From assembly GCA_965368815.1 (NCBI GenBank), contig CBDUOH010000001.1:33087-97086 (forward strand): DNA of 64,000 nt, read 5' to 3'. The DNA comes from an uncultured Acidimicrobiia bacterium (GTDB lineage: Bacteria; Actinomycetota; Acidimicrobiia; Spongiisociales; UBA5794). Both the position numbers and the translations under genes were made by a program. The notes below the pieces were generated by a model that had not been told where the DNA came from, did not search any database, and saw only the letters and a list, made by a program, of their open reading frames with translations. Positions within the stretch are counted from its first letter, which is position 1. Each line of letters opens with the position of its first letter. Below, piece after piece: positions 12,908 through 41,309 of the stretch.

Positions 12908-12929
12908 TTCTTGGTTCGCGCGTGACGAA

Positions 12930-14108: not shown

Positions 14109-14175
14109 GTTTGCCCTTGTCTGTGTCGTCGTGCCGGTCGCTGCCCGGCCCATGATATGGGAATCGGTCCGTTCC

Positions 14176-16433: not shown

Positions 16434-16435
16434 CG

Positions 16436-17734: not shown

Positions 17735-17897
17735 GGGTGGTGCTCCTCGGAGGTTGTGACCGCCTCGGTCCTGCTCGACGCGGGCGATACCGCTGCCATT
17801 GCAAGCCGTATCTGGGGACATGATACCGACAGGGATAGGGTTGCGCCGTCACGGATCGTCGGACCTGTTTCAGGTTCATCGTCATACACTTGCCCGG
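17735..17897. promoter_or_regulatory. Divergent intergenic region between the phosphonate operon and the LtaS-like gene (presumed promoters)
   Basis: Positional only: 163 bp between divergent start codons at 17734 (-) and 17898 (+). I could not call -10/-35 elements confidently. Confidence 0.3.
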
Positions 17898-23497: not shown

Positions 23498-23553
23498 CGG
23501 GCTCCTGACAGCTCGTGGACTCAAGGCGGAAGGCTACCCGCCGTTTCCTGTGA

Positions 23554-25130: not shown

Positions 25131-25139
25131 GTCGTCCTC

Positions 25140-26147: not shown

Positions 26148-26265
26148 CTGTTGTCCCTTCGGTCTCGGTGTAGCTTATCGAGCGGGTGTGATCGGTCGGA
26201 TCGGGTTTCGTGGTCGCCGATCCACATTCATCGGTCGGGCCGGGGTACTTCAAGTCCCGCCGTCG

Positions 26266-28581
26266 ATGGTCGTACGATGCGGGTGCCGTCCGGCGCATCG
26301 CTCAAGGGACGGTACCGGTTTGGCTGAGAAAGGTGATGCCATCCACAACTTCCGTCCAGACATACCCAACCCGGCATCAGCCAGCCGGCCCGGTCATGCC
26401 CGGCTTCGGGCCGATGATGCATCGGCCCCGGTGGTCTCGATCGTGACACCGTTCTTCAATACCGGGCCGGTGTTCGCTGAGACGGCGCTGAGCATTGCTC
26501 GCCAGACATTCCTGCAATGGGAATGGATCATCGTCAACGACGGTTCCGACGACCCTCAATCGCTGGCACTCCTCGACGGATTCCGGACCGGGGATACGCG
26601 GATCAGGGTCGTCGACCTGGCCAGGAACAGTGGGCCCGGCGCGGCCAGGAATCGTGGCTTCGCAGAAGCAGCGGGACGGTATGTGTTCCAGCTCGACAGT
26701 GATGACCTCGCTGAGCCGACCGCAGTCGAGACGTTGTACTGGTATCTCGAAACCCACCCGGAGATGGCCTTTGCAAAGGGTTACACAGTGGGGTTCGGTG
26801 CGGAGTCATACATCTGGGTCAACGGCTTCCATTTCGCGGAAGCCTTCCTCGACGGAAACCGGGCTGACACCATCGCCATGATCCGCACCGACGTCGCGAG
26901 ATCCATCGGATACGACGAATCGAACACGGACGGCCTCGAGGATTGGGAGTTCTGGGTTGCATGCGCCGCAGCGGGCTACTGGGGTGGAACCGTCCATGAA
27001 CCGCTCGGGTGGGTTCGTCGGAGATCATCCCATTCGGGTTCGTGGGCGAACTGGGACGATGGCCCTCGGGAGGAGGCGTTCCGGATCCGGCTCACACAGC
27101 GGTATCCGGCGCTGTTCGACGGCGGCTTTCCCGATGTCCGGTCACGGCCGGAGGAGCCATCCGGGTTCAATGCAGCACCGCCGCCTGCAGTCAACAGGAG
27201 CAATGCCGACGCATCAGGGCTCCTGATGCTCGTTCCGTGGCTTGAGGTCGGGGGAGCAGACCGCATCAACCGCGCCATTGTCGGGTGGATGATCGGCGCC
27301 GGTTGGCATGTCTCGGTCGTCACAACGCTGCCCGCACCGAACGCATGGGAGTCCGAGTTCCGGCTGCTGACGGCGGACGTGTTCGTGATGGATCGCTTTC
27401 TTGCAATCGACGAGCGTGTTCGGTTCATCAGTTACCTCATCGAGTCGCGCTCGATCGACGTCGTGATGATCTCGAACAGCTGGTTCGGGTACGACGTTGT
27501 GCCGATGTTGCGCAGGATGCACCCCGAGTGTGCATTCGTCGATCTGACCCATGCCGAGGAGGAATGGAACGACGGCGGGTATCCCCGGTTGTCATGCGAG
27601 TATCGGAACAGCCTTGACCTCAGGATTGCCGGAAGCGCGCATCTCAAAGCGTGGATGGAAGAGCGTTGTGGCAGTGATCCGAGCGTCGAGGTCTGGTACG
27701 GAGGGATAGATACGGCGAAGTTCGCTCCGGATCAGGCCGCCCGCATCGCGACGCGACAGGAGCTTGGAGTCACCGGCAGTCAGACGGTGCTGTTGTTCGT
27801 GGGACGACTCGCCCCCGAAAAGCAACCGCTGGTTTTCGTCGATGTGGTTCGGTCTGTGTCGCAACGGGGCCACGATGTGGTCGGCATCGTTGTCGGCGAC
27901 GGTGAGCTGCGAGGAGCCCTCAACGAACGAATCGTCGATGCCCAGGATTCCGCACCGGTGCATGTGGAGAATTCGGCAGGCGATGAACGGGTTCTGGACC
28001 TGATGCGCGCGGCGGATGTGCTCGTGATGCCGTCGCTGCGCGAGGGGGTCGCGGTCGCCACCTACGAGGCGATGGCTGCTGGTCTGGTGGTCGTCGCCAC
28101 CGAGGTCGGGGCACAGGATGAACTCATCGCGCATGGCGCGGGCGTGCTGATCCCGGATCCGTCCGGTCACGATCTGGCGGAAAGAATCGCTTCGGCGGTT
28201 GAGAATCTCATCGTGGACCCCGAAGTCCGTGAGGCGATGTCGTCCACGGCACGCACCCGCGTCGTCGAGCGATTCTCCTCTGATCGTGCAAGGGATCGCA
28301 TTGCCGGACTGCTCGCCGACGTCGGCGCACGGCACCGCGACGGGTCAGAAGGCGCGCCACCCGACGGATATGACGAGAACGCCGTGTTCGTCAGGCACAA
28401 GGGTCTCGAGACCCAGCAGCTGTACACGCTGAGCCTTCGGGAGCCGAGCGGGCTGCCGGGAGTCGATGCCGGACGAACCCTCGGGTACAGGATTCTGCGG
28501 CGCTTCTATCGGTCGATCCGACGCATCCCCGGATTGGGGCGCCCTTTGGAACGGCTCGCCCGGAGGGTCGGTGGATCGTAG
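26266..28581 (+). CDS. Fused dual glycosyltransferase (GT2 + GT4-like GT-B)
   Basis: VVSIVTPFFNTGPVFAETALSIARQTFLQWEWIIVNDGSDD, LDSDD and EDWEFW (GT2). The C-terminal MPSLREGVAVATYEAMAAGLVVVATEVGAQDE is GT-B. Start ATG 26266 is the first ATG after the divergent gene, and the N-terminus is uncertain. Confidence 0.8.
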   Translation: MVVRCGCRPAHRSRDGTGLAEKGDAIHNFRPDIPNPASASRPGHARLRADDASAPVVSIVTPFFNTGPVFAETALSIARQTFLQWEWIIVNDGSDDPQSLALLDGFRTGDTRIRVVDLARNSGPGAARNRGFAEAAGRYVFQLDSDDLAEPTAVETLYWYLETHPEMAFAKGYTVGFGAESYIWVNGFHFAEAFLDGNRADTIAMIRTDVARSIGYDESNTDGLEDWEFWVACAAAGYWGGTVHEPLGWVRRRSSHSGSWANWDDGPREEAFRIRLTQRYPALFDGGFPDVRSRPEEPSGFNAAPPPAVNRSNADASGLLMLVPWLEVGGADRINRAIVGWMIGAGWHVSVVTTLPAPNAWESEFRLLTADVFVMDRFLAIDERVRFISYLIESRSIDVVMISNSWFGYDVVPMLRRMHPECAFVDLTHAEEEWNDGGYPRLSCEYRNSLDLRIAGSAHLKAWMEERCGSDPSVEVWYGGIDTAKFAPDQAARIATRQELGVTGSQTVLLFVGRLAPEKQPLVFVDVVRSVSQRGHDVVGIVVGDGELRGALNERIVDAQDSAPVHVENSAGDERVLDLMRAADVLVMPSLREGVAVATYEAMAAGLVVVATEVGAQDELIAHGAGVLIPDPSGHDLAERIASAVENLIVDPEVREAMSSTARTRVVERFSSDRARDRIAGLLADVGARHRDGSEGAPPDGYDENAVFVRHKGLETQQLYTLSLREPSGLPGVDAGRTLGYRILRRFYRSIRRIPGLGRPLERLARRVGGS

Positions 28582-28665
28582 CGGCGAGTTCGATACCCGT
28601 GGTGCGCACGATGCGCGGGTACCATACCGACGCTCCATGAATCCTCGACTGAGCGACGACCACCG

Positions 28666-29496
28666 ATGACCGATACGACATTCACACACGATTCTGCTCG
28701 TGGCCGGCGGCCGCTTCTGACCGACGTCGCCAACCTGCGAAAGTATCGCGGGCTGCTCCGCTTGCTCGTTGTGCGAGATCTCACGGTCAGGTACAAGCGA
28801 TCCGCGCTCGGTGTGTGGTGGACATTGCTGAACCCGCTGCTGTTCTCTGCAGTCATCTGGGTGGTGTTCGGACAGATCTTCCGGTTCGAGACGCCGGGGG
28901 TCCCGTACATCGTGTACCTGCTCTCCGGTGTGATCTGGATGGGCTTCTTCTCCCAGGGCGTCATGACGACTGGTTCGTCGATCGTGAACAGTGCCTCGAT
29001 TCTCACCAAGGTGAGTGTGCCGCCAGAAGTGTTCTCGTTCGCGGCAGCGATAGCGGCAGGATCGAACTTCGTTCTCAGCCTCCCGATTCTGATTGCTGCC
29101 CAGCTCGCCTTCGGCGTCGGTATCCCGTGGACGATCGTGCTCGTCCCGATCCCGCTTCTCGCAACCGTTGTCCTTGTGACGGGTATCGGACTCCTGGTTG
29201 CTTCTGCAGCGGTGTTCTTCTTCGACGTGCTCGACTTCACGGCCGTTCTCGTTCAGCTTGCGAGCTACTTGACGCCGACGTTCTACCCGATCGAAATCAT
29301 TCCTGACCACCTCCGCTGGCTGGTCGGACTCAACCCCCTCTATTCCTATCTGGAGATCTTCCGCGGGTTCATGTACGGCGGGACATTCGCTCCTGCCTGG
29401 CAATTCGCATACATGTCCGTCACGGCCGTGGTCGCGCTCATGCTCGGCGTATGGGTGTTCAATCGCAGTTGGAAGAATCTCGTGGTGAGGATCTGA
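28666..29496 (+). CDS. ABC-2 type polysaccharide/teichoic-acid export permease (Wzm/TagG-like)
   Basis: LLRLLVVRDLTVRYKRSALGVWWTLLNPLL is the typical ABC-2 N-terminal motif. Six TM helices. Confidence 0.85.
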   Translation: MTDTTFTHDSARGRRPLLTDVANLRKYRGLLRLLVVRDLTVRYKRSALGVWWTLLNPLLFSAVIWVVFGQIFRFETPGVPYIVYLLSGVIWMGFFSQGVMTTGSSIVNSASILTKVSVPPEVFSFAAAIAAGSNFVLSLPILIAAQLAFGVGIPWTIVLVPIPLLATVVLVTGIGLLVASAAVFFFDVLDFTAVLVQLASYLTPTFYPIEIIPDHLRWLVGLNPLYSYLEIFRGFMYGGTFAPAWQFAYMSVTAVVALMLGVWVFNRSWKNLVVRI

Positions 29497-30239
29497 TGTC
29501 CAACGACGCAGTTGTCAGGGTTGAGGACGTGTCGCTCGCCTTTCGCATCGGTCGGAGTCAGGTGGGAACGATGAAGGAACACCTCATCAACCTTCTGAAG
29601 GGAAACACGACCTACGAGAAGCTCTGGGCGCTCAAAGGCGTGTCGTTCGAGGTGCAACGCGGAGAGGTGCTGGGCATCATCGGGCCGAATGGCGCTGGCA
29701 AGTCAACCCTGATGAAGATCATCGCGCAGGTACTCCCACCGACATCGGGAAGAGTCAGGGTCGACGGTTCGATCGCACCGATGATCGAACTCGGGGCCGG
29801 GTTCAACTCCGAGATGACCGGGGTGGAGAACATCGTGTTGTACGGCACCCTGCTCGGTCGTGATCCGAAGGAAATGCGAGAGCGTGTCGGCGCCATTGCC
29901 GAGTGGGCAGAGTTGGAGGAATTCATCGACACGCCGATCCGCAATTACTCGTCCGGGATGTTGGCCCGACTCGGGTTCGCCGTTGCGACCGATCAACGAC
30001 CCGATGTCCTGGTGGTCGACGAGGTGTTGTCGGTGGGCGATGAGAGCTTCCAAAGCAAGTCAGGCAAGCGCATCGAAGCCATGATCGCCGAAGGGACCTC
30101 GGTTGTCCTTGTCTCGCACGTGCTCGGGACAGTCGCGGAATTGGCCGACCGGGTGGTCTGGCTCGACCATGGGAACATCGTCAAAGAGGGCGACCCGAAA
30201 GACATCGTCGAGTCCTATCGAGAGGCTGCTACCGGTTGA
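29496..30239 (+). CDS. ABC exporter ATP-binding protein (Wzt/TagH-like, no C-terminal carbohydrate-binding domain)
   Basis: Start moved to ATG 29496 (TGATG overlap). Walker A GPNGAGKST, signature YSSGMLARL, Walker B VLVVDE. Only ~247 aa. Confidence 0.9.
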   Translation: MSNDAVVRVEDVSLAFRIGRSQVGTMKEHLINLLKGNTTYEKLWALKGVSFEVQRGEVLGIIGPNGAGKSTLMKIIAQVLPPTSGRVRVDGSIAPMIELGAGFNSEMTGVENIVLYGTLLGRDPKEMRERVGAIAEWAELEEFIDTPIRNYSSGMLARLGFAVATDQRPDVLVVDEVLSVGDESFQSKSGKRIEAMIAEGTSVVLVSHVLGTVAELADRVVWLDHGNIVKEGDPKDIVESYREAATG

Positions 30240-31221
30240 GTGAACCGGTTGGTTCGGTGCGGAGCGATCGCGCCTTGCCGAAACCAAGCAGCAGGCCCAC
30301 CCAGAGGCCGGATCCGTAGGCCAGGTGCATCGTCGCTGCGGCGATGCTCACACCGAGCGGCCGTTCTGACGCTCTGATACCCACGACAGCGAGTGCAGCG
30401 GTCCATGACCCGACCAGGACGATCAGGGGGATCCACGAGACGGTCAATCCCACGATCACGCCGACAAGCATTCCTGCCACGAGGAACGCAGGCGCAAGCG
30501 GTCGTGGCGACGGGAGCCTGCCGTTGGCGATGAGGAGTTCACTCTTGCCCTGCCCGTAGCGCCAGTATTGGCGTGCAAGTTGACGCCATGAACTCCGTGG
30601 CCGGTACCACGAGCGTATGTCCGGATCGACAACAACAGTGCGACCGGACGCACGCCACCGTGCGTAGAAGTCGGCATCTTCAACGGTCCCGGAAGGAAAT
30701 GTGCGGTAGCCGCCGGTGTCGAGGAAGTCGACACGAGCGAACGTCCCGAGATACACGGTATCGACAGTTTCACGTTGTGTCGCATGACGGAAACGGCCCG
30801 GTCCGATGGCAATCGGATCCGCCATGGCGGCTGCCACTGACCGCTCCCAGGCAGTGGCTCCCTCACCGACCATGGGGCCACCGACCGCAGAACCCGGTAC
30901 CCAACCATCGATGCTCGCGGTCACGTAGTTCTCTGCATACCTCGTGTGCGCATCGAGGCGGACAAGCAGGTCGCCGGTCGCCTGGGAGGCCACGGCGTTG
31001 AGCCCGATCGATTGCACGCGGTCCGGGTTCGGATGAAGTTGCACTCGTGGATCGATTCGGCTGCGGGCCTGAACTCGTTCAACCGTGCCATCGGTCGACC
31101 CACCATCGGCAACCAGGACCTCGATGACACGCCGGTCGGTGAGGGCGACATCCATTACGTGATCGACGTTCTCGACCTCGTTGAACGTCGCGACGATCAC
31201 TGACACGGAAGGTAAATGCAT
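30229..31221 (-). CDS. GT2 glycosyltransferase with C-terminal TM helices (ExoA-like)
   Basis: VSVIVATFNEVENVDHVM, VADGGSTDGT and a DAH motif. Two or three C-terminal TM segments. The 3' end overlaps the convergent ABC ATPase gene by 11 nt. Confidence 0.8.
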   Translation of the reverse strand: MHLPSVSVIVATFNEVENVDHVMDVALTDRRVIEVLVADGGSTDGTVERVQARSRIDPRVQLHPNPDRVQSIGLNAVASQATGDLLVRLDAHTRYAENYVTASIDGWVPGSAVGGPMVGEGATAWERSVAAAMADPIAIGPGRFRHATQRETVDTVYLGTFARVDFLDTGGYRTFPSGTVEDADFYARWRASGRTVVVDPDIRSWYRPRSSWRQLARQYWRYGQGKSELLIANGRLPSPRPLAPAFLVAGMLVGVIVGLTVSWIPLIVLVGSWTAALAVVGIRASERPLGVSIAAATMHLAYGSGLWVGLLLGFGKARSLRTEPTGSLNR

Positions 31222-31294: not shown

Positions 31295-33055
31295 ATGCGT
31301 CTCCTTCGCGCCCTTGTCACGATCGCAAGTGTTCTCGCCTTGCTCGCTCCCGCCGGCGCGATTGCCGGTGAGGTACCTGCGCAGCTGCACACGGGTTTGT
31401 ACTCGGATGACTTCGATTCCTCCGGCGACCTCAACGCCGTCGGATCGGCGGCAGGGCAGAAAGTGACGTTCGGTGGAACGTTCCACGACATTTCCGAGGC
31501 CAGCGGAAGCTACAACCCCTCTGACCCGAACTCGTGGTCGAACACCGTGCAGATCCTTGACGGTGTGTGGGCCGGCAAGGCGACACCGTTTGCCAACGTG
31601 GGCGTCAATGCATCGGCCGCGGCGATCGCAAGCGGCGCCCATGACGCTCAGATAGCCGAGTGGGTTCGTCATGTGAAGGCCTGGCTCGACAAGCTTGAGA
31701 ATCGCAGCCTTGTCGTGGCCCCGCTCCAGGAACACAACGGGAACTGGACGCCGTACGGCTGTAATCCAACAGCGTTCAAGGCCGCCTACCAGAAGTTCGT
31801 CGATGCATTCGACAACGCCGGCATAGGCGAGAACAAGGTGAGGTTCGCCTGGGCACCGAACGGTTGGACATCCCCGGGCTGTGGATCGCTTGCGGACTAC
31901 TACCCGGGTGACGGGGTCGTCGACGTGGTCGGAATCTCGGCATACAACTGGTCGGCCTGCCCGGGCAACGCAGCCTACGACACGCCCGCCGAGGCGATGG
32001 GGCCCTATCTCGACGAGATCCGAGGCACGATCCCCGGGGCGGGGGTGAAGCCGTTCGTGATCGCCCAGACAGCCTCGCCTCGTGGGTCATGCCAGAGCGA
32101 CTGGATCACGTCGATGGTTCCGTACCTGAAAGCCGATCCCAATGTCGTCGGATTCGTCTGGTTCAACTTCAACAAACCGGGCGAACCGGACTTCCGTGTC
32201 TGGACGACATCGCTGACGAAGGGCTGGAAGGATGCAGTTGCCACCGGGGACACGACGTACACGTGGCCTCTGACGTCCTGGTTCACGCCCGGCCCGTTGA
32301 CCGTCGGTGGGCTGCCACCCGAGGACCCTCCGTGCGGCAAAGGACCCTGCGACACCATCGCATCGATCGATGGCGGCGGACTCTGGTCTCGATGGGCTGA
32401 GCTGTTGTCGACGTCGGGAACGAATGACTTCTACTTCGGCAATCCCGGGGACTTCCCATTCATGGGTGACTGGAACGGAGACGGAACCGCAACGCCGGGT
32501 CTGTACAGGCAGTCGGACGGGTTTGTGTATGTCCGGTACTCCAACAGCCAAGGCATAGCGGATCGTGAGTTCTTCTTCGGCAACCCGGGAGACGTCCCGT
32601 TGGTTGGCGATTTCGACGGCGATGGTCGCGACTCGGTCTCGATCTGGCGTGCCAGCGAGGCACGGGTCTACATCATCAACGAGCTCGGCGCCGACGGAGC
32701 TGGGCTTGGTGCAGCCGACTTCAGCTACTACTTCGGGAACCCGGGCGACCAGCCCTATGTCGGCGATTTCGACGGTGACGGCATCGACACAGTCGGTCTG
32801 TACCGGCAATCAACCGGGTTCGTGTACTTCCGGAATTCGCTCACGACCGGCAATGCGGACTTCTCGTTCTTCTACGGGAACCCCGGAGATCGCATCATCG
32901 CCGGCGACTGGGACGGTGATGGCGACGACACGGTGGCCGTGTACCGACCGTCCACCCGTCGGATCTACGTCAATCTTGAGAACTCGAGCGGAGCAGCCGA
33001 CTGGACCGGGTACGTCGGAACCGTGTCCCACGTCGTGACTGCGGGCAACCGTTGA
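31295..33055 (+). CDS. Secreted GH26-like glycoside hydrolase + four-repeat GNPGD module
   Basis: Start moved to ATG 31295 (MRLLRALVTIASVLALLAPAGAIA signal peptide). VAPLQEHNGNWTPYG, FAWAPNGW and YYPGDGVVDVVGISAYNW resemble GH26 motifs (PLHEMNG.W / YYPGD.YVD..G.D.Y). The family call is tentative. Confidence 0.8.
   Translation: MRLLRALVTIASVLALLAPAGAIAGEVPAQLHTGLYSDDFDSSGDLNAVGSAAGQKVTFGGTFHDISEASGSYNPSDPNSWSNTVQILDGVWAGKATPFANVGVNASAAAIASGAHDAQIAEWVRHVKAWLDKLENRSLVVAPLQEHNGNWTPYGCNPTAFKAAYQKFVDAFDNAGIGENKVRFAWAPNGWTSPGCGSLADYYPGDGVVDVVGISAYNWSACPGNAAYDTPAEAMGPYLDEIRGTIPGAGVKPFVIAQTASPRGSCQSDWITSMVPYLKADPNVVGFVWFNFNKPGEPDFRVWTTSLTKGWKDAVATGDTTYTWPLTSWFTPGPLTVGGLPPEDPPCGKGPCDTIASIDGGGLWSRWAELLSTSGTNDFYFGNPGDFPFMGDWNGDGTATPGLYRQSDGFVYVRYSNSQGIADREFFFGNPGDVPLVGDFDGDGRDSVSIWRASEARVYIINELGADGAGLGAADFSYYFGNPGDQPYVGDFDGDGIDTVGLYRQSTGFVYFRNSLTTGNADFSFFYGNPGDRIIAGDWDGDGDDTVAVYRPSTRRIYVNLENSSGAADWTGYVGTVSHVVTAGNR
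32429..33013 (+). repeat. Four-repeat GNPGD module, copy 2
   Basis: FYFGNPGDFPFMGDWNGDGTATPGLYRQSDGFVYVR, FFFGNPGDVPLVGDFDGDGRDSVSIWRASEARVYIINELGADGAGLG, YYFGNPGDQPYVGDFDGDGIDTVGLYRQSTGFVYFR, FFYGNPGDRIIAGDWDGDGDDTVAVYRPSTRRIYVNL. Confidence 0.9.
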
Positions 33056-34299
33056 TGGTCCCCGCTCACCGTCTCGGTCGATCCTTTGCCATTCTTGCGG
33101 CGTTCGCAATCGTTGCTGGCTTGTTCAGCACGGCGTCCGTCGCCCCGGCGTCGGCTGCATCAGCCGGCGTCGACCCGGGTCTCGAGGAGTGTCTGTTGAA
33201 CCTGCACAACGCAGAGCGAACGGCGCGAGGTCTGCACCCGCTCGTCCCCGATCCCACGCTCACCGCGTATGCGCGGGATTGGTCGTGGGAGATGTATGAC
33301 TCACGCGATTTCCGCCACTCCGACCTGTCGTGGCCGGGCACGTGGTGGGGGCGGAGCGAGAACATCTCGTACAGCTACGGGTACGGTCATCAATGTGAGA
33401 CCCACCACGATGGGTTCATGAATTCCTCGGGCCATCGAGCCAACATCCTGAGAGCATCCTCGGATCGCGTCGGGGTCGGCATCGTCTTTGACGGCGATTC
33501 GAACGATCTGATGTATGTCACGGTGGTCTTCGGGGATTCAGACGGCACCGACGGGCCCGCACCGGGCTCCGACCCACCTCCGTCGCCTTGCGGTGGTGAC
33601 TGTGCAGGATTCGCTGCAGTCGATGCAGGCGGCGAGTGGACTCTGTTCGATGAGATCGGAGATCAGAACCCCTCGACATTCTTCTTCGGCAATCCCGGTG
33701 ACATCCCGTTCATGGGCGACTGGAACGGGGACGGGACGCCTACCCCTGGTCTGTATCGCCAGAGCGATGGCTTCGTGTACCTGAGGGATTCGAACACCCA
33801 GGGTGTCGCGGATCACGAGTTCTTCTTCGGTAACCCCGGTGATGTTCCGATCGTCGGGGACTGGGACGCCGATGGCGACGACACGGTGTCCGTCTATCGG
33901 CCAGCGACGGGCCGGTTCTACATCATCAACGAACTCGGGACCGACGGTGGGGGACTCGGCGAAGCGGACTACGACTTCGCCTTCGGAAACGTCGGTGACA
34001 CCCCGTTCGTCGGTGACTTCGATGGCGATGGCGTCGATTCGATCGGTCTGTATCGCCAGTCGACCGGCTACCTGTACTTCCGGAACGAACTTTCGACGGG
34101 TGTCGCCGATAACTCGTTCTACTACGGCGATCCCGGGGATCGGATCATGGCCGGCGACTGGGACGGTGACGGCATCGACACGGTTGCGGTCTATCGCCCG
34201 TCCGTGTGGCACCTGTATGTGAAGCTCGCCAACAGCGCGGGTACAGCCGATTGGGATGCGTACCTCGGCGATTTTCGGTACGTCGTATCGGCACGATGA
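33055..34299 (+). CDS. Secreted CAP/SCP (PR-1-like) domain protein + four-repeat GNPGD module
   Basis: ATG 33055 (TGATG overlap; TTG 33052 is also possible). LLNLHNAERTARGLHPLVPDPTLTAYARDWSWEM, GENISY, HDGFMNSSGHRANIL and VGVGIV are bacterial SCP-domain motifs. Confidence 0.85.
   Translation: MVPAHRLGRSFAILAAFAIVAGLFSTASVAPASAASAGVDPGLEECLLNLHNAERTARGLHPLVPDPTLTAYARDWSWEMYDSRDFRHSDLSWPGTWWGRSENISYSYGYGHQCETHHDGFMNSSGHRANILRASSDRVGVGIVFDGDSNDLMYVTVVFGDSDGTDGPAPGSDPPPSPCGGDCAGFAAVDAGGEWTLFDEIGDQNPSTFFFGNPGDIPFMGDWNGDGTPTPGLYRQSDGFVYLRDSNTQGVADHEFFFGNPGDVPIVGDWDADGDDTVSVYRPATGRFYIINELGTDGGGLGEADYDFAFGNVGDTPFVGDFDGDGVDSIGLYRQSTGYLYFRNELSTGVADNSFYYGDPGDRIMAGDWDGDGIDTVAVYRPSVWHLYVKLANSAGTADWDAYLGDFRYVVSAR
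33679..34263 (+). repeat. Four-repeat GNPGD module, copy 3
   Basis: FFFGNPGDIPFMGDWNGDGTPTPGLYRQSDGFVYLR, FFFGNPGDVPIVGDWDADGDDTVSVYRPATGRFYIINELG, FAFGNVGDTPFVGDFDGDGVDSIGLYRQSTGYLYFR, FYYGDPGDRIMAGDWDGDGIDTVAVYRPSVWHLYVKL. Confidence 0.9.
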
Positions 34300-35699
34300 G
34301 GTATACGGAAACCCCGGGATTCAAGAATGTCGGTGACGCTGCCGATACCAACAAGATGCGCAACGGAGCCACCGCCGCCGCCGCACGATTGATTGCGGTC
34401 GTATTCGCCGTGTTCTCGCTCGCGCTCGTGGCGACGCCGGCGAGGGCGGACGAACCGCCGCCGCCGTGGATCTTCCCTGTTGTCGGCGAGGACGGCGTCG
34501 ATTTCGGCTATTACGACACGTTCGGTGCACCACGCGGCGGTGGCCGCAGTCATCACGGCGTTGACATCGGTACCTACGGCGTCAAAGGCGTTCCTGTCGT
34601 TGCAGCGGCCGACGGGTACGTGAAGCAGGTGAACTGGTCCTCGGATCCCGACAATCTCAACCCCGATCGATGCTGCACCATCGCACTCGTCCATGAGGGG
34701 GGCTGGGAGACCTGGTACATCCATCTGGACAACGACACCGAGGGCACCGACGATGGCCTCGGCTGGGGCATCGCCGACGGCGTCGTTCCCGGGGCAGATG
34801 TTGTGGCCGGTCAACTGATCGGTTGGGTCGGCGACTCTGGCAACGCCGAAGGCACGTACCCGCATCTTCATTGGGAGGTCCATGCACCGGGTGGCGTTGT
34901 GGTCAACCCGACGCCACATGCCGACTCGGCCATGCGGATCCCGGAGCCGGGAATCGTGAGCTACGACCCGCCATGTACCGACGGCGCCACCTGCGATTCG
35001 ATCGCAGTCGTCGACAGCGGTAGCCGATTCGGATTGTGGAGCCAGCTCGACGATCCACACGAGACCGATTGGTTCTATTTCGGCAACCCGGGCGATATCC
35101 CGTTCATGGGTGACTGGGACGGTGACGGTATCGCAACACCGGGTCTGTACCGTCAATCCGACGGTTTTGTCTACCTCCGCGAGTCCAACACCGAAGGTGT
35201 CGCAGATCGTGAATTCTTCTTCGGGAATCCCGGGGACGTTCCATTGATCGGCGACTTCGACGGCGATGGGAGGGATTCGGTGTCGATCTGGCGTTCGAGC
35301 GAGGCTCGGGTGTACGTGATCAACGAGCTCGGTGCCGACGGCGAGGGGCTCGGAGCGGCGGACTACGACTTCATGTTCGGCAACCCCGGTGACCAGCCGT
35401 TCGTCGGTGACTTCGACGGGGACGGGATCGATACGATCGGGCTCTACCGGACATCGACGGGATTCGTCTACTTCACGAATGCCAACGAGACCGGTGCCGC
35501 CGACAACGAGTTCTTCTACGGCAACCCCGGTGACGTGATCTTCGCCGGTGACTGGGACGGCGACGGCGACGACACCGTTGCCGTGTTCCGCCCCTCGAGT
35601 CGACGCGTCTACATGAATCTCAACAACGCACCAGGTACGGCCGATTGGGCCGGATACGTCGGCACGAACCCATACGTGGTCGTGGCCGGTCGCCGATGA
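34296..35699 (+). CDS. Secreted M23 (LytM-type) peptidoglycan endopeptidase + four-repeat GNPGD module
   Basis: ATGA overlap with the upstream stop. Signal/TM segment RLIAVVFAVFSLALVATPARA. HHGVDIG (HxxxD), WYIHLDN and GDSGNAEGTYPHLHWEV (HxH) motifs. Confidence 0.85.
   Translation: MRYTETPGFKNVGDAADTNKMRNGATAAAARLIAVVFAVFSLALVATPARADEPPPPWIFPVVGEDGVDFGYYDTFGAPRGGGRSHHGVDIGTYGVKGVPVVAAADGYVKQVNWSSDPDNLNPDRCCTIALVHEGGWETWYIHLDNDTEGTDDGLGWGIADGVVPGADVVAGQLIGWVGDSGNAEGTYPHLHWEVHAPGGVVVNPTPHADSAMRIPEPGIVSYDPPCTDGATCDSIAVVDSGSRFGLWSQLDDPHETDWFYFGNPGDIPFMGDWDGDGIATPGLYRQSDGFVYLRESNTEGVADREFFFGNPGDVPLIGDFDGDGRDSVSIWRSSEARVYVINELGADGEGLGAADYDFMFGNPGDQPFVGDFDGDGIDTIGLYRTSTGFVYFTNANETGAADNEFFYGNPGDVIFAGDWDGDGDDTVAVFRPSSRRVYMNLNNAPGTADWAGYVGTNPYVVVAGRR
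35073..35657 (+). repeat. Four-repeat GNPGD module, copy 4
   Basis: WFYFGNPGDIPFMGDWDGDGIATPGLYRQSDGFVYLR, FFFGNPGDVPLIGDFDGDGRDSVSIWRSSEARVYVINELG, FMFGNPGDQPFVGDFDGDGIDTIGLYRTSTGFVYFT, FFYGNPGDVIFAGDWDGDGDDTVAVFRPSSRRVYMNL. By eye, nucleotide identity to copies 2 and 5 in repeat 2 is roughly four positions in five. Confidence 0.9.
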
Positions 35700-36985
35700 A
35701 AACCCGTGCGATCGTGCAAACCCTCGGTATGGTGCCCGCTGGTGAGGAGGCTGGAATGACCACGAGATCGACGTCAACTGCGAACCGGTCGTTGCGGCGC
35801 GCCCTGATACTCGCGTTCACGGTTGCAGCGTTCCTGCTGACGGCGGCCGGTATGGCTGCCGCATCGGACGATGTGGGGCTCGTCGACGGTGAGACCGGCA
35901 TCTGGTACCTCAGGGACGCTGCGTCGGGGGAGACCACCTCGTTCTACTACGGCAATCCCTCCGACTACCCGTTCGCGGGGGACTGGGACTGCGACGGCGT
36001 CGACACGCCAGGGCTCTACCGCCAGTCCGACGGATATGTGTATCTGCGGAACTCGAACACGCAAGGGATTGCCGACATCCGGTTCTTCTTCGGCAACCCG
36101 GGCGATATCCCGCTTCCCGGTGATTTCGACGGCGATGGGTGCGACTCGGTGTCGATCTACCGTCCATCCGAGGCACGGGTCTACATCATCAACGAGATCG
36201 GTGCCCACGGCGCAGGTTTGGGTGCCGCGGACTTCAGCTTCGCCTACGGGAACTACGGGGACATCCCGGTTGTCGGCGACGCCGATGGTGACGGTACCGA
36301 TTCCATCCACATGTTCCGGGAACAGACGGGGATGGTCTACCTCAACGACGTCGTGGGGGATGGGCCGACGACTGCGGTGGAGGTCGCAGACCGTACCGTA
36401 CCGCTGATCGGAGACTGGCCCGGAAGCGGAGCCGTGGCGACGTTCGGGTCGAACCCGTCCGAGTTCGACGTGCCCGGTACCGGAGTGTTCGCATACGGTG
36501 GCCCTGACATGTCCCCGATCTCGGGTGACTTCGGAGTCCTCCCCGGTGGCGACGACCCGCCGCCGGTTCCACCTCCGTATCCGGATGTGGGTGACGGCAA
36601 ACGGATCATCTACTCCAATTCCGAGCAGCACGTCTGGTTGGTCGATGAGAACAACAAACTCGTCGACGATTACCCCGTGTCCGGTCGCAAGGGTATTCCC
36701 TACGCAGGCACGTACTCGGTCTTCAGCAAGTCGGTGAATGCCTACGCGCCCTACGGCGGGATCACGATGCAGCACATGGTCCGATTCGTCCGTCCTGGTA
36801 CATGGGGCAACCAATGGTCCTACGGCTTCCACTCGATACCCAGATATCCCAATGGACAGCCGATGCAGACGGTCGACGAACTCGGGTACTACCGGTCAGG
36901 TGGATGTGTTCGGCAGGAGGATGGCAAGGCTGCGGCGTTGTTCGAATGGGCCGACATCGGCACCGTCGTCCACGCGCTGCCGTAG
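35696..36985 (+). CDS. Secreted protein: N-terminal GNPGD repeat module + C-terminal L,D-transpeptidase (YkuD) domain
   Basis: ATGA overlap with the upstream stop. TM/signal segment ALILAFTVAAFLLTAAGMAAA. The C-terminal YGFHSIP....SGGCVRQ matches the YkuD catalytic H...S-x-G-C-x-R motif. Confidence 0.85.
   Translation: MKTRAIVQTLGMVPAGEEAGMTTRSTSTANRSLRRALILAFTVAAFLLTAAGMAAASDDVGLVDGETGIWYLRDAASGETTSFYYGNPSDYPFAGDWDCDGVDTPGLYRQSDGYVYLRNSNTQGIADIRFFFGNPGDIPLPGDFDGDGCDSVSIYRPSEARVYIINEIGAHGAGLGAADFSFAYGNYGDIPVVGDADGDGTDSIHMFREQTGMVYLNDVVGDGPTTAVEVADRTVPLIGDWPGSGAVATFGSNPSEFDVPGTGVFAYGGPDMSPISGDFGVLPGGDDPPPVPPPYPDVGDGKRIIYSNSEQHVWLVDENNKLVDDYPVSGRKGIPYAGTYSVFSKSVNAYAPYGGITMQHMVRFVRPGTWGNQWSYGFHSIPRYPNGQPMQTVDELGYYRSGGCVRQEDGKAAALFEWADIGTVVHALP
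35942..36447 (+). repeat. GNPGD repeat module, copy 5 (N-terminal position, last repeat degenerate)
   Basis: FYYGNPSDYPFAGDWDCDGVDTPGLYRQSDGYVYLR, FFFGNPGDIPLPGDFDGDGCDSVSIYRPSEARVYIINEIG, FAYGNYGDIPVVGDADGDGTDSIHMFREQTGMVYLN, then a degenerate VPLIGDWPGSG. Confidence 0.85.
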
Positions 36986-36987: not shown

Positions 36988-38007
36988 CTAGTGCGTCGGC
37001 ATGTCCCTGCCGCCGCGTCTCCCCGGCGTCGGCGCACCCCTGTGGAGCGTGCGGGTCTGGCTCCTCGGGTATCGCAGCGACATCGCGTTGACCATGTGCA
37101 GGGCAGATACGGTTCGGAACCGCTCGACCTCGCGTCGGCGTTGGAGCCTGCCGCGTCGCCGTGTCCAGACGCTTTGATACGACCGCCATTTGGCTCCCGC
37201 AAGCCCGGATCGTTTCCGAACGGCGTACACCCAGACCGCGAGCTCGGTGGCGACGATGATCGGGCTGACCAACAGCCTCGTTGCGAACCCGAGGTACGTC
37301 ATCAGCATTTCGATGCGGTTGCGCTCCAGGAGGAAGAACTTCTCGGGTGACATCGTGAGGTGATAGTCGTGGACAACGGCTGGTGTCGGTACGTGCCAGA
37401 CCTGGTATCCAGCGGCCATGATGGCCCATGACAGTTCGACGTCCTCGTGATAGAGGAATCCGCGTTCGGACCAACCACCGATCTGCTCGAGAACGTCCCG
37501 CTTGATCACGAACGCGGTCCCCTGGACACCGTGAACTCTCGCCGGGGTCACGGCTGCCGTGTCGGTGGCATGGCCCAGGTGCCGATTGAAGCCGAACCCT
37601 GCTTTGTGGAGCAGCAATCCTTCGGCGTTGATGCCCGTTCCGTCAGCCAGGATCACCGTGGGACACGCCGCAGCGATTCGGTCGTTGCGTTCCAGTATGT
37701 CGACGCAGGGCGCAATCCAGTCGCCCTCGACGACGCAATCAGCGTTCATGACAGCGATGTGCTGCGTTGTGACCGAGCGCACCCCGAGGTTGACTCCGCC
37801 CGCATAGCCGAGGTTCTTCTCGGATCGGACGACCTTGACTCCATCGAGGCGCCCGGCGACCGCATGCGCGATCGATGCCGTGTCATCGGTGGACGCGTTG
37901 TCGACGATCACCAGCGGGCCGGCGAAACCGGACTGCCGCACGGATTCGATGCATCGTTCGAGTGTCCCTGCATCGTTGTACGCCACGATGATGAGCGCCG
38001 ATGCCAC
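36988..38007 (-). CDS. GT2 glycosyltransferase (soluble, rhamnosyltransferase-like architecture)
   Basis: ALIIVAYNDAGTLERCIESV, VIVDNASTDDT, NLGYAGGVNLG and MNADCVV motifs. It starts 1 nt after the upstream gene ends. Confidence 0.8.
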   Translation of the reverse strand: MASALIIVAYNDAGTLERCIESVRQSGFAGPLVIVDNASTDDTASIAHAVAGRLDGVKVVRSEKNLGYAGGVNLGVRSVTTQHIAVMNADCVVEGDWIAPCVDILERNDRIAAACPTVILADGTGINAEGLLLHKAGFGFNRHLGHATDTAAVTPARVHGVQGTAFVIKRDVLEQIGGWSERGFLYHEDVELSWAIMAAGYQVWHVPTPAVVHDYHLTMSPEKFFLLERNRIEMLMTYLGFATRLLVSPIIVATELAVWVYAVRKRSGLAGAKWRSYQSVWTRRRGRLQRRREVERFRTVSALHMVNAMSLRYPRSQTRTLHRGAPTPGRRGGRDMPTH

Positions 38008-38008
38008 G

Positions 38009-39175
38009 CTAGGACGTCCGGTCGGTCAACAGTGTGATGAAGAGCGAAGCGGACAACATCTGGAGGCCGAAGACGGCTCCCGTGGCTGTCGCGACCAGCG
38101 TGCGGGTATCGGTGAATGCAGGTCCTCCCGCGGCAAGCCACGCGACAATCGTCGCGAGCAGCCAGAGGCCACACACCATCACGAGCGTGAGCCCGGTGAG
38201 TGCAGCGATGGCACGAGCCCGGCCCGATGTCAGCGCGTCGACGGCGCGCGACACGCGGAATCCGAGTTGCTTGCGGTACACAGCGCCCGCGATACCAAAG
38301 ATCAGGAGCTGGAATCCTGCGAGGATCCCGAGGGCGGACACGATGAACGAATGAATCGACAGACCGAGGTAACCGGTCATCACGGGTCCTCCTGCGAGCG
38401 CGACGGCGGCGATCAGCGACACGGTCGTCAGGATCGCCCCGGGTACGCCGAAGAGCATCAGTGGGCGATACACGAGCACCAGGCGCAGGATGCGCCCGAA
38501 GATGCGTGCCCCGTCGCGGAGGGGATTGAGCTTCTTCTCGCCGACCCTCGGGAGATAGTCGATGGGGACCGACGCGGTACGGAGCTCTCGCTCCTTGACC
38601 TTGATGCCGATCTCGACCTCGATGTCGAAGCCTCGCGCTTCGGTACCGAGATCGCCGAATATGGCCCGCCTGAAACCGTACAGCCCACTGAGGTGATCAC
38701 CGCGATCGAGGCCGTGCAGGGTCTGGAGCACGCGCTCCATCAGGGCGTTGCCGATTCGGTTGATCATCGGGGTATTCGATGCATCGATGGCTCGATCAGC
38801 CCGCACATAGTCGTTGTCAGCGAGCAGCTCGACCATGGCAGGAATCGCTTGTGCCGGGTATGTCGCATCGGCGTCCATGAAGAAGACATAATCACCGCTT
38901 GATGCCTCGAACCCGGTCCTGAGGGCACTGCCTTTGCCGAGATTGCTCTGATGCGGGGCAACGACGCAGCCGAGTCCTGCTGCCTCGGCGGCCGTGGCGT
39001 CCGTGCTGGCATCGTCGACCACCACGATCTCGGCATCGGGCAGATGGGTCCGGATGTCCGCGACGACGATCGGGATGGCGTCAGCCTCGTTGTACGCAGG
39101 CAGCACGACGGTCACCGTGGGCGAGTTCGACCGTCGGGCGACGGCGTCTGGTTGGGTCGAGATCGAGTGTGACAC
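38009..39175 (-). CDS. Polyprenyl-phosphate glycosyltransferase (GtrB/DPM1/ArnC-like GT2) with extended C-terminal TM region
   Basis: VTVVLPAYNEADAIPIVVADI, VVVDDASTDAT, NLGKGSALRTGF and FMDADATY, followed by at least four TM helices. Confidence 0.85.
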   Translation of the reverse strand: MSHSISTQPDAVARRSNSPTVTVVLPAYNEADAIPIVVADIRTHLPDAEIVVVDDASTDATAAEAAGLGCVVAPHQSNLGKGSALRTGFEASSGDYVFFMDADATYPAQAIPAMVELLADNDYVRADRAIDASNTPMINRIGNALMERVLQTLHGLDRGDHLSGLYGFRRAIFGDLGTEARGFDIEVEIGIKVKERELRTASVPIDYLPRVGEKKLNPLRDGARIFGRILRLVLVYRPLMLFGVPGAILTTVSLIAAVALAGGPVMTGYLGLSIHSFIVSALGILAGFQLLIFGIAGAVYRKQLGFRVSRAVDALTSGRARAIAALTGLTLVMVCGLWLLATIVAWLAAGGPAFTDTRTLVATATGAVFGLQMLSASLFITLLTDRTS

Positions 39176-39197: not shown

Positions 39198-41309
39198 TCA
39201 GCCGCCCCAGTATCCGGCGATCGGGTTCATCCAGGAATCCCCGAATTGGAAGATCACGTTCGCCGACGTCTGGGTGTAGGTGTCGCGGAGGTAGAAGGTT
39301 CCGTTCGACGGCCGGAACACCCCGAGTGTGTCGTCTCCGTCGTTGTCCCAGTCGCCCGCGATCACGAGATCACCCGCTGCCGCTCCCCGGTAGTTGTAGG
39401 CAACAGACACGGCGCCGGTTGCGAGGTTGTCCGTGAGGTACACCATCTTGGTCGACGGGCGATAGACACCCACGGTGTCCTTGCCGTCTCCGTTCCAGTC
39501 GCCTGCGATCGGCTGATCGCCCGAGTTGCCGAACGACACCACGATGTCGGCGATGCCCTGCGTGTTTGTGTTGCGGAGGTAGAACTTCGATTCCGATGGA
39601 CGGTAGACGCCGACGGTGTCAGTCCCGTTTCCGTTCCAGTCGCCTGCGATCGGGATGTCACCGGGGATGCCGTAGTAGATGTCGATGTCGGCGACACCTT
39701 GCGTGTTGGAGTTCCGGATGAACAGGAACCCGACGCTTCGGCGGTACAAACCGACGGTCTCGATGCCATCTCCGTTCCAATCACCGATGAACGGCTCATC
39801 GTTCGGGTCCCCGTAGTAGAACGTCTTGACCGCGCCAGACGGCATCCGGATTGACCAGACACCGGTCGTCGGGTCCTGCATGCCGACCGACGATGCGCCT
39901 GCGGGAACAGTCATCGGGGGCGGTCCTTCGACCTCGGCGTCATCGATGTCGAAGTACCAGCTGTAGAGACCGAATCTCGAGCTGACCGTGCCCACCGGCA
40001 GCGTGACGGTCTTGATGCCGTCCTCGCCGGCGTCTGCGGTGAACCGCACGGTCTTGGCACTCCCCGAGGTGTGCCGGGCGATGACATCGGCAGCGGTGAG
40101 GCGATATCCGTCGTAGAGCGAGCTGGTACCCCAGACCTTGTCGATGACCACGTCGGTCGTGAACGTGGATGTCCATGTCCCGAGCGGATTGGCCGCGGTG
40201 ATCGACTGCCCATCCGACTTCGAAATCAGATACGACCGATACGAACCCCACTTCTCTTCCGACGACTCGGTCGCTCCACCGTTCGACGAGCTGTAGTACG
40301 CCTTGACGATCTTGCCGTCAGGGGCCTGGGCATGGGTCATCACCATGCCCGCTGTGGCGTTCGCAGCGGCTTCCCACAGCGTTCCCATCGTGAAACTCCG
40401 GGTCCAGCCGGCGTACACCTGGTCTGAGGAGCTGTTCTTGATGTCGCAGAAGCATCCCGCATTCCTGTGGTTGACCGTGTAGGCAGTGGCTGCGCCATAC
40501 GACCGTGCCGCCACCGCCTGGGTCCTGAGGGCGTTGGATGGCCACGAGTACGGCACCTCGGAGATCCCCCGTGTGTACTCGTCGAGGGTGGTCACGACAA
40601 CGAGATCGAAGCCCGGATAGGCCAGCTCGTTGTTGTTGCCGCACGGGTGTGCATAGCAGTCATGGAGGGATCGGTGACTGCTGACGTTGTCGACCACGTG
40701 GAAGGCGGTGCCGTATCCGTAGGTGCATTGGGTCGGTCGCCTGCAGTTGGTGGCGGATATGAGATTGGACGGTTCGCCACCGGGAGCGTTGAGCGCTGCT
40801 GTCACATCGCAGCTCCCGACCCCCCAATCGGTGGCGACGTCATCGATGGTCACGACGATCTGGCAACCGCCGGGTGCACCCTCCTGGGGTGTGGTGTCGA
40901 CGATCGATACGGTGTCGCCGCTGAACAGGGTCGTCGACGGTGTGGCTGTCACGGTGGGATCGCGGGTGATCACGATCCCGGCTTCAGGAGCCGCAGGACC
41001 GGGGTGCACCGTGAGTGTCGTGCTCGTGATGTCCGATGCCACGTTGGTGTAGATCGAATCGACGGCTCCGACACCGCCCTGACCGAGGACGCCGATCGTT
41101 GCCCCGTGGTAGTAGAAGCCGAGGATGGTCGAGTACGACTGGCCGTCGAGTGCCCTTTGGTATGCGCCGTATTGGCTCATACCCACGCCATGACCGAATC
41201 CGGAGCCTTCGAAGTCGATCGTCGCAGGAGGTTCCGCAGCGGTAGCCGTCGAAGGAATCGATGTCATGGAGACCAACAACGCAATCAATATCAGAGATCT
41301 GCGAACCAT
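39198..41309 (-). CDS. Secreted SpoIID/LytB-domain protein + C-terminal five-repeat GDWNGDG module
   Basis: Signal peptide MVRRSLILIALLVSMTSIPSTATAA. GHGVGMSQYGA and YYSSSNGGATE are SpoIID-domain motifs. The C-terminal repeats are a diverged version of the GNPGD module. Confidence 0.85.
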   Translation of the reverse strand: MVRRSLILIALLVSMTSIPSTATAAEPPATIDFEGSGFGHGVGMSQYGAYQRALDGQSYSTILGFYYHGATIGVLGQGGVGAVDSIYTNVASDITSTTLTVHPGPAAPEAGIVITRDPTVTATPSTTLFSGDTVSIVDTTPQEGAPGGCQIVVTIDDVATDWGVGSCDVTAALNAPGGEPSNLISATNCRRPTQCTYGYGTAFHVVDNVSSHRSLHDCYAHPCGNNNELAYPGFDLVVVTTLDEYTRGISEVPYSWPSNALRTQAVAARSYGAATAYTVNHRNAGCFCDIKNSSSDQVYAGWTRSFTMGTLWEAAANATAGMVMTHAQAPDGKIVKAYYSSSNGGATESSEEKWGSYRSYLISKSDGQSITAANPLGTWTSTFTTDVVIDKVWGTSSLYDGYRLTAADVIARHTSGSAKTVRFTADAGEDGIKTVTLPVGTVSSRFGLYSWYFDIDDAEVEGPPPMTVPAGASSVGMQDPTTGVWSIRMPSGAVKTFYYGDPNDEPFIGDWNGDGIETVGLYRRSVGFLFIRNSNTQGVADIDIYYGIPGDIPIAGDWNGNGTDTVGVYRPSESKFYLRNTNTQGIADIVVSFGNSGDQPIAGDWNGDGKDTVGVYRPSTKMVYLTDNLATGAVSVAYNYRGAAAGDLVIAGDWDNDGDDTLGVFRPSNGTFYLRDTYTQTSANVIFQFGDSWMNPIAGYWGG
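39201..39821 (-). repeat. GDWNGDG repeat module, copy 6 (five repeats, diverged)
   Basis: FYYGDPNDEPFIGDWNGDGIETVGLYRRSVGFLFIRN, IYYGIPGDIPIAGDWNGNGTDTVGVYRPSESKFYLRN, VSFGNSGDQPIAGDWNGDGKDTVGVYRPSTKMVYL, AAGDLVIAGDWDNDGDDTLGVFRPSNGTFYLRD, FQFGDSWMNPIAGYW. Confidence 0.85.

Follow-up and report, generated by a model that had tools for sequence, protein, structure and literature searches.

We analysed a 64,000-nucleotide stretch of DNA from an uncultured Acidimicrobiia bacterium (Actinomycetota; Acidimicrobiia; Spongiisociales; UBA5794), i.e., positions 33,087-97,086 of the forward strand of contig CBDUOH010000001.1 (GCA_965368815.1), hereafter the window, in which six open reading frames (ORFs) encoding M15, GH26-like, CAP, M23, YkuD and SpoIID proteins carry one and the same repeat module. 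We consider it probable, at roughly 70%, that this module is an extracytoplasmic five-bladed beta-propeller which serves as a non-covalent anchor to the cell envelope. This reading is carried by the fold of the module, its set of six copies, its equivalence with SLH and CWB2 domains in the same protein slot, its use by phages and its conserved gene order, and glycan binding by the module is proposed. Most likely the module tethers its proteins non-covalently to a cell-wall glycan, and it would then be an undescribed family of bacterial wall-binding domain. What is new here is best classed as a propeller lectin of the FG-GAP superfamily, five-bladed and positionally fixed, that would be used as a housekeeping wall anchor.

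As we picture it, the module proteins would be exported by Sec, the propeller would then bind a wall glycan and, once bound, would hold the fused enzyme in the wall from either terminus. The ligand would most likely be a wall-linked secondary glycopolymer from the surrounding locus, and the main alternative is the glycan strand of peptidoglycan. A preliminary description of this stretch had proposed a modular envelope-targeting domain comparable to SLH, LysM or choline-binding repeats, and this proposal draws independent computational support from the toxin protein UmbA4, phage proteins, slot exchange and partner domains.

Six copies of one module

A hidden Markov model (HMM) built from the six window copies was searched against the six-frame translation of the window. 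Exactly six modules were matched, at E values of 1e-105 to 1e-125, which excludes chance similarity, and the remaining alignments were weak, secondary and confined to three of the six module proteins. Repeats of the form F-x-[FY]-G...G-D-[WF]-[DN]-G-D-G...R were located in all six proteins by a regular-expression scan. These are the same six ORFs to which the module had been assigned in the preliminary description.

Four of the genes form a run on the forward strand. The first (31295..33055) encodes a secreted GH26-like glycosidase (Glyco_hydro_26, 3e-8, a partial match) with a C-terminal module (32339..33052, HMM E 4.3e-124). It is followed by the genes for a secreted CAP/SCP (YkwD-like) protein (33055..34299; Pfam CAP, 3.8e-16), also with a C-terminal module (33589..34296, E 7.1e-120), and for a secreted M23 metallopeptidase (34296..35699; Peptidase_M23, 2.4e-13), whose C-terminal module (34983..35696, E 4.6e-125) was the copy used for modelling. 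The run ends with an L,D-transpeptidase gene (35696..36985; YkuD, 1.9e-11, residues 302-425), in whose product the SGGCVR catalytic motif is kept and the module is N-terminal (35852..36541, E 8.3e-105, HMM positions 1-229). The overlaps that had been read at 33055, 34296-34299 and 35696-35699 are confirmed by the junction sequences, TGATG at 33053-33057, ATGA at 34296-34299 (CAP and M23 genes) and ATGA at 35696-35699 (M23 and YkuD genes), and are consistent with translational coupling. The CAP gene would start at the ATG at 33055, which overlaps the upstream TGA, with a TTG at 33052 as an alternative start.

The two remaining genes lie on either side of this run. A secreted M15 (VanY-type) peptidase with a signal-peptide-like N-terminus is encoded at 186..2390 on the forward strand (Pfam Peptidase_M15_4, 4.2e-14) and bears the module C-terminally (1662..2387, forward strand, E 1.9e-122, HMM positions 2-240), with a cysteine pair in its blade-1 and blade-2 loops. 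A secreted SpoIID/LytB-family protein, with the module likewise C-terminal, is encoded on the reverse strand at 39198..41309 (Pfam SpoIID, 2.5e-12; NCBIfam SpoIID_LytB, 8.4e-42; module at 39201..39911, E 1.9e-106, HMM positions 2-240). The matches to distinct Pfam and NCBIfam families agree with the earlier statement that the catalytic domains are unrelated, and the coordinates of the copies with a module that is C-terminal in five proteins and N-terminal in the YkuD protein. All six proteins had been called wall-active enzymes; this holds for the M15, M23, YkuD and SpoIID proteins, which belong to peptidoglycan-active families, whereas wall activity of the GH26-like and CAP proteins is only assumed. 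Signal-peptide-like N-termini were found in all six window proteins and in 64 of 80 homologues; an internal control region gave 5 of 80.

Conservation of the module

The conserved unit spans about 235 amino acids instead of the roughly 190 originally described, with conservation reaching beyond the repeats by about 30 residues on the N-terminal side of repeat 1 (C-D-x-[IV]-x-x-x-D-x-G-x-W) and by about 17 on the C-terminal side of repeat 4 (Y-x-G...V-V-x-G). Each repeat of about 47 amino acids runs from F-Y-F-G (D strand) through N-P-G-D-x-P (D/A loop), x-x-G-D-W (A strand), the calcium-type loop D-G-D-G-x-D-T/S, x-G-L-Y-R (B strand) and G-F-V-Y-L-R (C strand) to N-S-N-T-x-G-x-A-D (C/D loop). 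The motifs said always to end repeat 1 and to be contained in repeat 2 are approximate, and the variants GLYRQSDGFVYVR (GH26), GLYRRSDGFVYLR (M15) and GLYRRSVGFLFIR (SpoIID) occur.

Pairwise amino acid identity among the six copies is 42-74%. The SpoIID copy, at 42-46% identity to the others, is the most diverged, as had been noted; it is, however, not a separate five-repeat version but has the same architecture, minus the 5-residue insertion in blade 2. Nucleotide identity between copies is 54-71% overall, and the value of about 80% previously estimated for repeat 2 is reached only locally and in some pairs (80-85% in blade 2 of GH26/M23 and GH26/YkuD). Identity at third codon positions is 41-51%, and no exact match exceeds 28 nucleotides. 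Recent duplication and gene conversion are thereby ruled out as sources of the likeness; the copies are old paralogues kept alike by selection on the protein.

Among 119 modules, the same blade is 77, 71, 70 and 59% identical between proteins for blades 1 to 4, respectively, and different blades inside one protein are 42-58% identical. Since same-blade identity exceeds between-blade identity, the module of the Acidimicrobiia subfamily is best read as one fixed domain. A cysteine in the blade-1 loop and another in the blade-2 loop are both present in 88 of these modules and both absent from 31, and no module has a single one; this covariation predicts a disulfide between blades 1 and 2, which would fit an extracytoplasmic location. 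An arginine is invariant in blades 1-3 and nearly so in blade 4. The D-G-D-G loop of blade 4 has decayed in the YkuD copy (GDWPGSG), and orthologues in other genomes are degenerate in the same way. Because blades 1 to 3 are the best conserved and remain intact in the YkuD copy despite its decayed blade 4, we suggest that the functional site involves these three blades.

Predicted fold

An AlphaFold2 model of the M23 module, computed from a 50-sequence alignment, was all-beta with exactly 20 strands (mean predicted local distance difference test score 94.8; predicted template modelling score 0.90). As 20 strands combine with four full repeats and additional terminal strands, the model is consistent with a self-contained five-bladed beta-propeller of 5 x 4 strands, whereas a unit of four repeats, possibly a 4- or 8-bladed propeller, had been envisaged earlier. 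The D-G-D-G hairpin loops lie in four blades, and the fifth blade would be made of three N-terminal strands and the last C-terminal strand (3+1 closure), an assignment of strands to blades that rests on strand order and repeat phase. Relatives carry five G-D-W motifs.

All top Foldseek matches of the model were propellers, with UmbA4 the best and others, including Bap1 and integrin alphaIIb/alphaV, next; KICSTOR, BBSome and WD40 proteins were also matched. A search of viral folds in BFVD returned generic propellers only and was uninformative. The loop motif D-[WF]-[DN]-G-D-G-x-[DT]-[TS] recurs in four blades, and the D-G-D-G loops may bind calcium. By analogy with integrin-type blades, the ligand face would be built from the conserved GNPGD (D/A) and RQSDG (B/C) loops, on the side away from the D-G-D-G hairpins and the blade-2 insertion I-N-E-L-G-x-x-G-x-G-L-G-A-A-D.

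Relation to known families

The module belongs to the FG-GAP/VCBS (integrin-alpha-like) propeller superfamily and lies outside any curated family. Pfam has no dedicated model for it: FG-GAP_3 (PF13517, gathering threshold 26.9 bits) scored 17.2 bits in the GH26 protein and 21.8 in the M23 protein, had zero matches in the CAP, YkuD and SpoIID proteins, and its significant match in the M15 protein falls in the central region, outside the module; some orthologues are borderline, at 28.4 bits. NCBIfam left the module unmatched in the six proteins, newer precomputed Pfam annotation left it blank or assigned an occasional PF13517, and the Pfam profiles for SLH, CWB2, LysM and CWB1 were unmatched in all six. 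The earlier remark that it maps to no named wall-binding domain is thus upheld, as neither Pfam nor NCBIfam has a model dedicated to it, and the noted resemblance to FG-GAP/VCBS holds for the propeller superfamily (Foldseek matches to integrin alpha and Bap1) but not at the level of Pfam scores, which are sub-threshold. PF27503 and PF27111 from the newer precomputed annotation were set aside; they occur only with a subset of amidase and hypothetical proteins, never with the module alone, and are probably partner domains.

With FG-GAP and FG-GAP_3 (VCBS; PF01839, PF13517) the module shares four-stranded blades, the F-G motif and a D-x-D-x-D-G-type hairpin. It differs in having the acidic residue at loop position 8, followed by T/S, instead of position 9, in a conserved sequence of its own for each blade, and in the conserved insertion of blade 2. 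Integrins have seven blades and Vibrio Bap1 eight; the module, with five, does not fall into the seven-bladed integrin-alpha type. The M15 protein carries two different propeller-type repeat regions, in that a canonical FG-GAP_3/VCBS region (Pfam 5.9e-16, residues 347-405, window 1224-1400, forward strand) stands between its catalytic domain and the module.

Searched against the whole PDB sequence set, the module profile gave a single match, UmbA4 (9oee_A, E 2.8e-6), inside the propeller of that protein, which is also the best Foldseek match (E 6.1e-9; template modelling (TM) score 0.53). A single-sequence search of the PDB yielded chance-level matches only (TcdA CROP, 0.008; UmbA4, 0.015). 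The C-terminal six-bladed propeller of UmbA4 is a lectin, with Streptomyces griseus teichuronic acid bound at its canonical pockets, and through this binding umbrella toxins are guided to the cells that they attack; five-bladed propellers, in twelve families, are also present among Streptomyces UmbA proteins (PMC13274773). The UmbA4 protein of Streptomyces coelicolor resembles the module in its FG-GAP-like blades with G-D-F-N-G-D-G-R-D-D loops and in being secreted and actinobacterial. It has, however, six blades of about 57 amino acids where the module has five of about 47, it is joined to a trypsin-like domain and a bulb lectin in a toxin particle aimed at competitors' walls, and Umb lectin domains are reported to be diversified whereas the module is strongly conserved. 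A scan of the first 42 kb of the window found no trypsin-like domain and no Umb-annotated component, no search being aimed at umbB or umbC. Among the homologues, four proteins from two loci (P0178, P0193, P0201 and P0215; L083 and L084) combine the module with a trypsin domain in which the TAAHC and GDSGG motifs are intact; this architecture resembles UmbA, and their contigs of about 3 kb are too short to show umb neighbours.

Other anchors offer likenesses of function. Like the module, SLH (PF00395) occurs on many unrelated exoproteins as a non-covalent anchor, but it shows no sequence similarity to the module and needs a pyruvylated polymer made with CsaB; its fold is a three-pronged helical spindle, unrelated to that of the module. 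CWB2 (PF04122) and the choline-binding repeats CWB1 (PF01473) are anchors made of repeats, by which autolysins and other surface proteins are attached to anionic wall polymers or to teichoic-acid decorations. The fold of CWB2 is a Toprim-like trimer and that of CWB1 a beta-solenoid, and repeat number varies in CWB1 whereas the module is a closed domain of five blades. The five-bladed propellers of the phage phi11 receptor-binding protein Gp45 and of tachylectin-2 are reported to bind GlcNAc-type wall or surface glycans. Both are absent from the top 50 Foldseek matches, with other blade sequences and without D-G-D-G loops, and the resemblance is analogous, homology not being demonstrable.

Distribution and partner domains

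A profile search of 1.84 billion cluster representatives gave 34,368 matches at E <= 1e-3 and 8,852 at E <= 1e-30, with the module at either end of proteins of varied length. The close relatives come almost entirely from metagenome-assembled genomes (MAGs) of Acidimicrobiia, often with several copies per locus (173 matches in 79 loci). Their partners are diverse: 57 Pfam families were found among 80 homologues of the Acidimicrobiia type, including PD40, DPPIV_N, S8, trypsin, Calx-beta, Big_9, LRR, cadherin-like, PKD, NHL, CAP and SpoIID. This survey rejects the idea that the module is specific to wall enzymes in Acidimicrobiia; with at least 57 partner families, it looks more like a general exoprotein anchor than a tag for peptidoglycan enzymes. 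The feature typical of anchors as a class, attachment at either terminus to many unrelated secreted proteins, is seen both in the six partners of the window and in this wider set. The toolkit of peptidoglycan remodelling to which the module was said to be appended is too narrow a description, the partners being far broader.

In the wider family, repeats of about 45 amino acids, five in each case examined, are joined to nearly all classes of peptidoglycan-active enzyme, namely Amidase_2, Amidase_3, CHAP, GH25, glucosaminidase, NlpC/P60, M23, YkuD, SpoIID and VanW domains as well as PgdA-type deacetylases and Rpf-like transglycosylases, in hosts that include Georgenia, Bifidobacterium, Agromyces, Promicromonosporaceae and Chloroflexota. 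The preliminary description would have given up its proposal had no association with wall enzymes existed in other genomes; these fusions supply it. The architecture with an N-terminal propeller and YkuD recurs in an L,D-transpeptidase of Bifidobacterium amazonense (P0297), and some relatives also bear PG_binding_1 or LysM.

Distant homologues outside Acidimicrobiia (P0122, P0125, P0127 and P0135) contain the repeat in longer arrays, with 6 units, with about 9 and with more than 17; in one of these four proteins two five-repeat modules flank a matrixin domain, and two are M23 peptidases. The view of the module as a single, non-expandable domain is thus valid for the Acidimicrobiia subfamily but not for the wider family, where 6 to more than 17 repeats occur. 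In distant MAGs, the best module copy per locus is 61-71% identical to the window M23 module and the M23 catalytic domain in the same loci is 43-53% identical, values that are indicative only since the copies may be paralogues.

Exchange with established anchors on the GH26-like domain

For the GH26-like catalytic domain we compared its 120 best homologues, which are 40-72% identical and mostly from Acidimicrobiia. Their C-terminal slot holds the module in 15, SLH in about 68, CWB2 in 3 and RTX repeats in 1 of the 120, e.g., three SLH stretches in P0404 (E 6.5e-37) and CWB2 in P0423 (1.2e-21), so that the module and known anchors replace each other on catalytic domains that are homologous. Both SLH and CWB2 are known from experiment to attach proteins non-covalently to wall polysaccharides, according to the text of a review whose domain table gives peptidoglycan as the SLH target (PMC5817068). 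The module would be functionally equivalent to SLH and CWB2, with an unrelated fold.

Phage relatives

Two phage contigs from IMG/VR encode five-repeat relatives of the module. In one (L081), ORF 7383-8609 is an endolysin with an N-terminal PGRP/Amidase_2 domain, a proline-rich linker and a C-terminal five-repeat propeller (PHROG endolysin, 4.7e-20; PDB PGRP, 1e-13; propeller against the module HMM, E 1e-48), and the propeller sits in the canonical position of a cell-wall-binding domain. In the other (L080), a tail protein with five repeats (7893-9359, E 1e-50) is encoded between a 1,431-amino-acid ORF and a tail-fibre-J-like gene; the large ORF is tape-measure-like by size, position and composition and has no family match. 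The guanine-cytosine content is 61% in L080 and 54% in L081. The literature that we searched contained no paper that connects FG-GAP-type repeats with endolysins or with binding to the wall.

Glycopolymer locus and gene order

All six module genes lie inside a locus of about 40 kb for the biosynthesis of an envelope glycopolymer. The part at 2538..30239 encodes GT1, GT2 and GT4 enzymes, a UDP-N-acetylglucosamine 2-epimerase, a TagF-like glycerophosphotransferase, a sulfatase/LtaS-like protein, RmlA/B-like enzymes, an ATP-binding cassette (ABC) ATPase and phosphonate genes, and is a candidate source of the module ligand. The phosphonate cassette, on the reverse strand, consists of a phosphoenolpyruvate mutase-cytidylyltransferase fusion (16436-17821), a thiamine-pyrophosphate-dependent decarboxylase (15303-16433) and an Fe-alcohol dehydrogenase (14176-15306), and it (14176-17821) adjoins the TagF-like gene (12930-14153). 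This content suggests that the wall polymer bears phosphonate, perhaps hydroxyethylphosphonate.

Just upstream of the four-gene run is a GT2 glycosyltransferase gene on the reverse strand (30229..31221), identified by its translation; it is syntenic in other Acidimicrobiia, its counterparts beside the GH26 gene being 48-65% identical in five loci (L002, L003, L004, L005 and L058). Two further GT2 genes on the reverse strand (36988..39175; Glycos_transf_2, 2.9e-27 and 1.7e-26) separate the YkuD and SpoIID genes and are likewise syntenic elsewhere. The block GT2 - GH26 - [CAP] - [S8] - M23 - [YkuD] - GT2 - GT2 - SpoIID recurs in many Acidimicrobiia MAGs, as does the order M15-module - GT1 - DUF6020. 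The syntenic clusters of other MAGs vary (L003, 11928-13985; L032, 10822-12855 and 12859-14691): the operon contains an inserted S8 subtilase that bears the module, and in L032 the YkuD gene gives way to one for a GSDH-like protein whose module is N-terminal.

Alternative explanations

A secondary wall polymer is the favoured ligand because of the SLH and CWB2 exchanges, the relationship to UmbA4 and the synteny. The closest competing explanation keeps the anchor but makes peptidoglycan itself the ligand, through a feature of the glycan strand or stem peptide, as for LysM, SH3b and PG_binding_1; we regard this as possible but clearly the less likely of the two. It is favoured by the very high conservation of the module across paralogues and MAGs (59-77% per blade) and by its spread, as hydrolase fusions, over Bifidobacterium, Georgenia, Agromyces and Chloroflexota, whose secondary wall polymers are expected to be unlike one another, and the propeller in the wall-binding slot of an endolysin is also in keeping with it. 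The nearest characterised relative, UmbA4, nonetheless binds teichuronic acid, the genes are conserved within a locus for glycopolymer synthesis, and the additional PG_binding_1 or LysM on some relatives suggests that the specificities are not redundant. The swapped SLH and CWB2 domains also count against it as binders of wall polysaccharide in the review text, although the table there directs SLH to peptidoglycan (PMC5817068). Several results weigh against the favoured reading: the conservation of the module across MAGs fits a peptidoglycan-like ligand better than a variable polymer, and TM-scores to every solved structure are modest (<=0.53), no five-bladed propeller of the FG-GAP type having been solved, so that the link to UmbA4 holds at superfamily level only. 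The last acidic residue of the calcium-type loops is one position off the canonical D-x-D-x-D-G-x-x-D. The GH26 slot does not appear exclusive to wall anchors, as P0411 carries RTX calcium-binding repeats (3e-44) there. Furthermore, the phage contigs are metagenomic and without known hosts, and tblastn of the module against deposited phage genomes (INPHARED) gave no match.

It is decidedly unlikely, in our judgement, that the module works as an FG-GAP/VCBS adhesin or carbohydrate-binding module of the generic kind, aimed at external substrates and with no part in keeping proteins on the wall of the producer. The weak FG-GAP_3 similarity, partners without an evident wall role (S8, trypsin, PD40, LRR, cadherin-like, PKD and Calx-beta), the aim of UmbA4 at the walls of other cells and the UmbA-like trypsin-module proteins would accord with such a role. 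The YkuD L,D-transpeptidase, SpoIID, M23 and M15 proteins are, however, housekeeping enzymes that act on the wall of the producer, the self-anchors SLH and CWB2 can stand in for the module, its position in the endolysin implies binding of the host wall from within, and its strong purifying conservation differs from the diversification reported for Umb lectins. More doubtful still is a docking unit that, like dockerin with cohesin, would assemble the enzymes on a shared protein scaffold or S-layer and would bind no glycan: although many propellers are platforms for protein interaction (KICSTOR, BBSome and WD40 proteins among the Foldseek matches) and one operon holds several translationally coupled module genes, the syntenic loci are without a conserved candidate scaffold gene, attachment to a scaffold protein of the host would bring little benefit to phage endolysin and tail proteins, and UmbA4, the relative found at sequence level, is a lectin. 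Least probable of all would be a calcium-dependent domain for folding, stability or autoinhibition without a targeting role. The four D-G-D-G loops per module and the RTX block of P0411 would suit it, but the module occurs at either terminus and beside at least 57 unrelated partner families, which speaks against a specific regulation within the molecule, and the SLH and CWB2 swaps and the endolysin position indicate targeting.

Significance

To our knowledge, no system for the surface display of proteins has been described in Acidimicrobiia, which are represented in this analysis almost entirely by MAGs. If the module is the envelope anchor that we propose, a new fold would join the short list of wall-binding domains, among which a 2018 review of the surfaceome lists no propeller (PMC5817068). 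The architecture of thousands of proteins now called hypothetical would be explained (8,852 cluster representatives at E <= 1e-30), prediction of surface proteomes in Acidimicrobiia would gain a handle, and engineered lysins or probes against Actinomycetota would gain a candidate targeting domain. It would also establish an evolutionary link between housekeeping wall anchors and the lectins of umbrella toxins and phages, which would recognise the same kind of polymer. A much bolder version strikes us as rather improbable: that the module is the first beta-propeller class of bacterial wall-binding domain, widespread in Actinomycetota, Chloroflexota and phages, and the principal display system of Acidimicrobiia, recognising in this lineage, by means of the blade arginines, a teichoic-acid-like ligand with phosphate or phosphonate that the flanking locus would make with its TagF-like and phosphonate enzymes. 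Such a system would parallel the choline-binding proteins of pneumococci, with a phosphonoglycan as its basis.

Further features of the module proteins and the locus

About 10 residues ahead of the module, a C-x5-6-C mini-loop is conserved in the four C-terminal copies with proline-rich linkers, i.e., those of the M23 (PPCTDGATCDS), GH26 (PPCGKGPCDT), CAP (PSPCGGDCAG) and M15 (PKCDDPGQCDS) proteins, and is not found in the YkuD and SpoIID copies. The mini-loop may act as a hinge stapled by a disulfide. On the reverse strand at 28345-29403, a 352-amino-acid ORF with no Pfam match has counterparts of 41-53% identity beside the ABC ATPase gene in L058 and L076, and its product may be a permease or another component of a polymer exporter.

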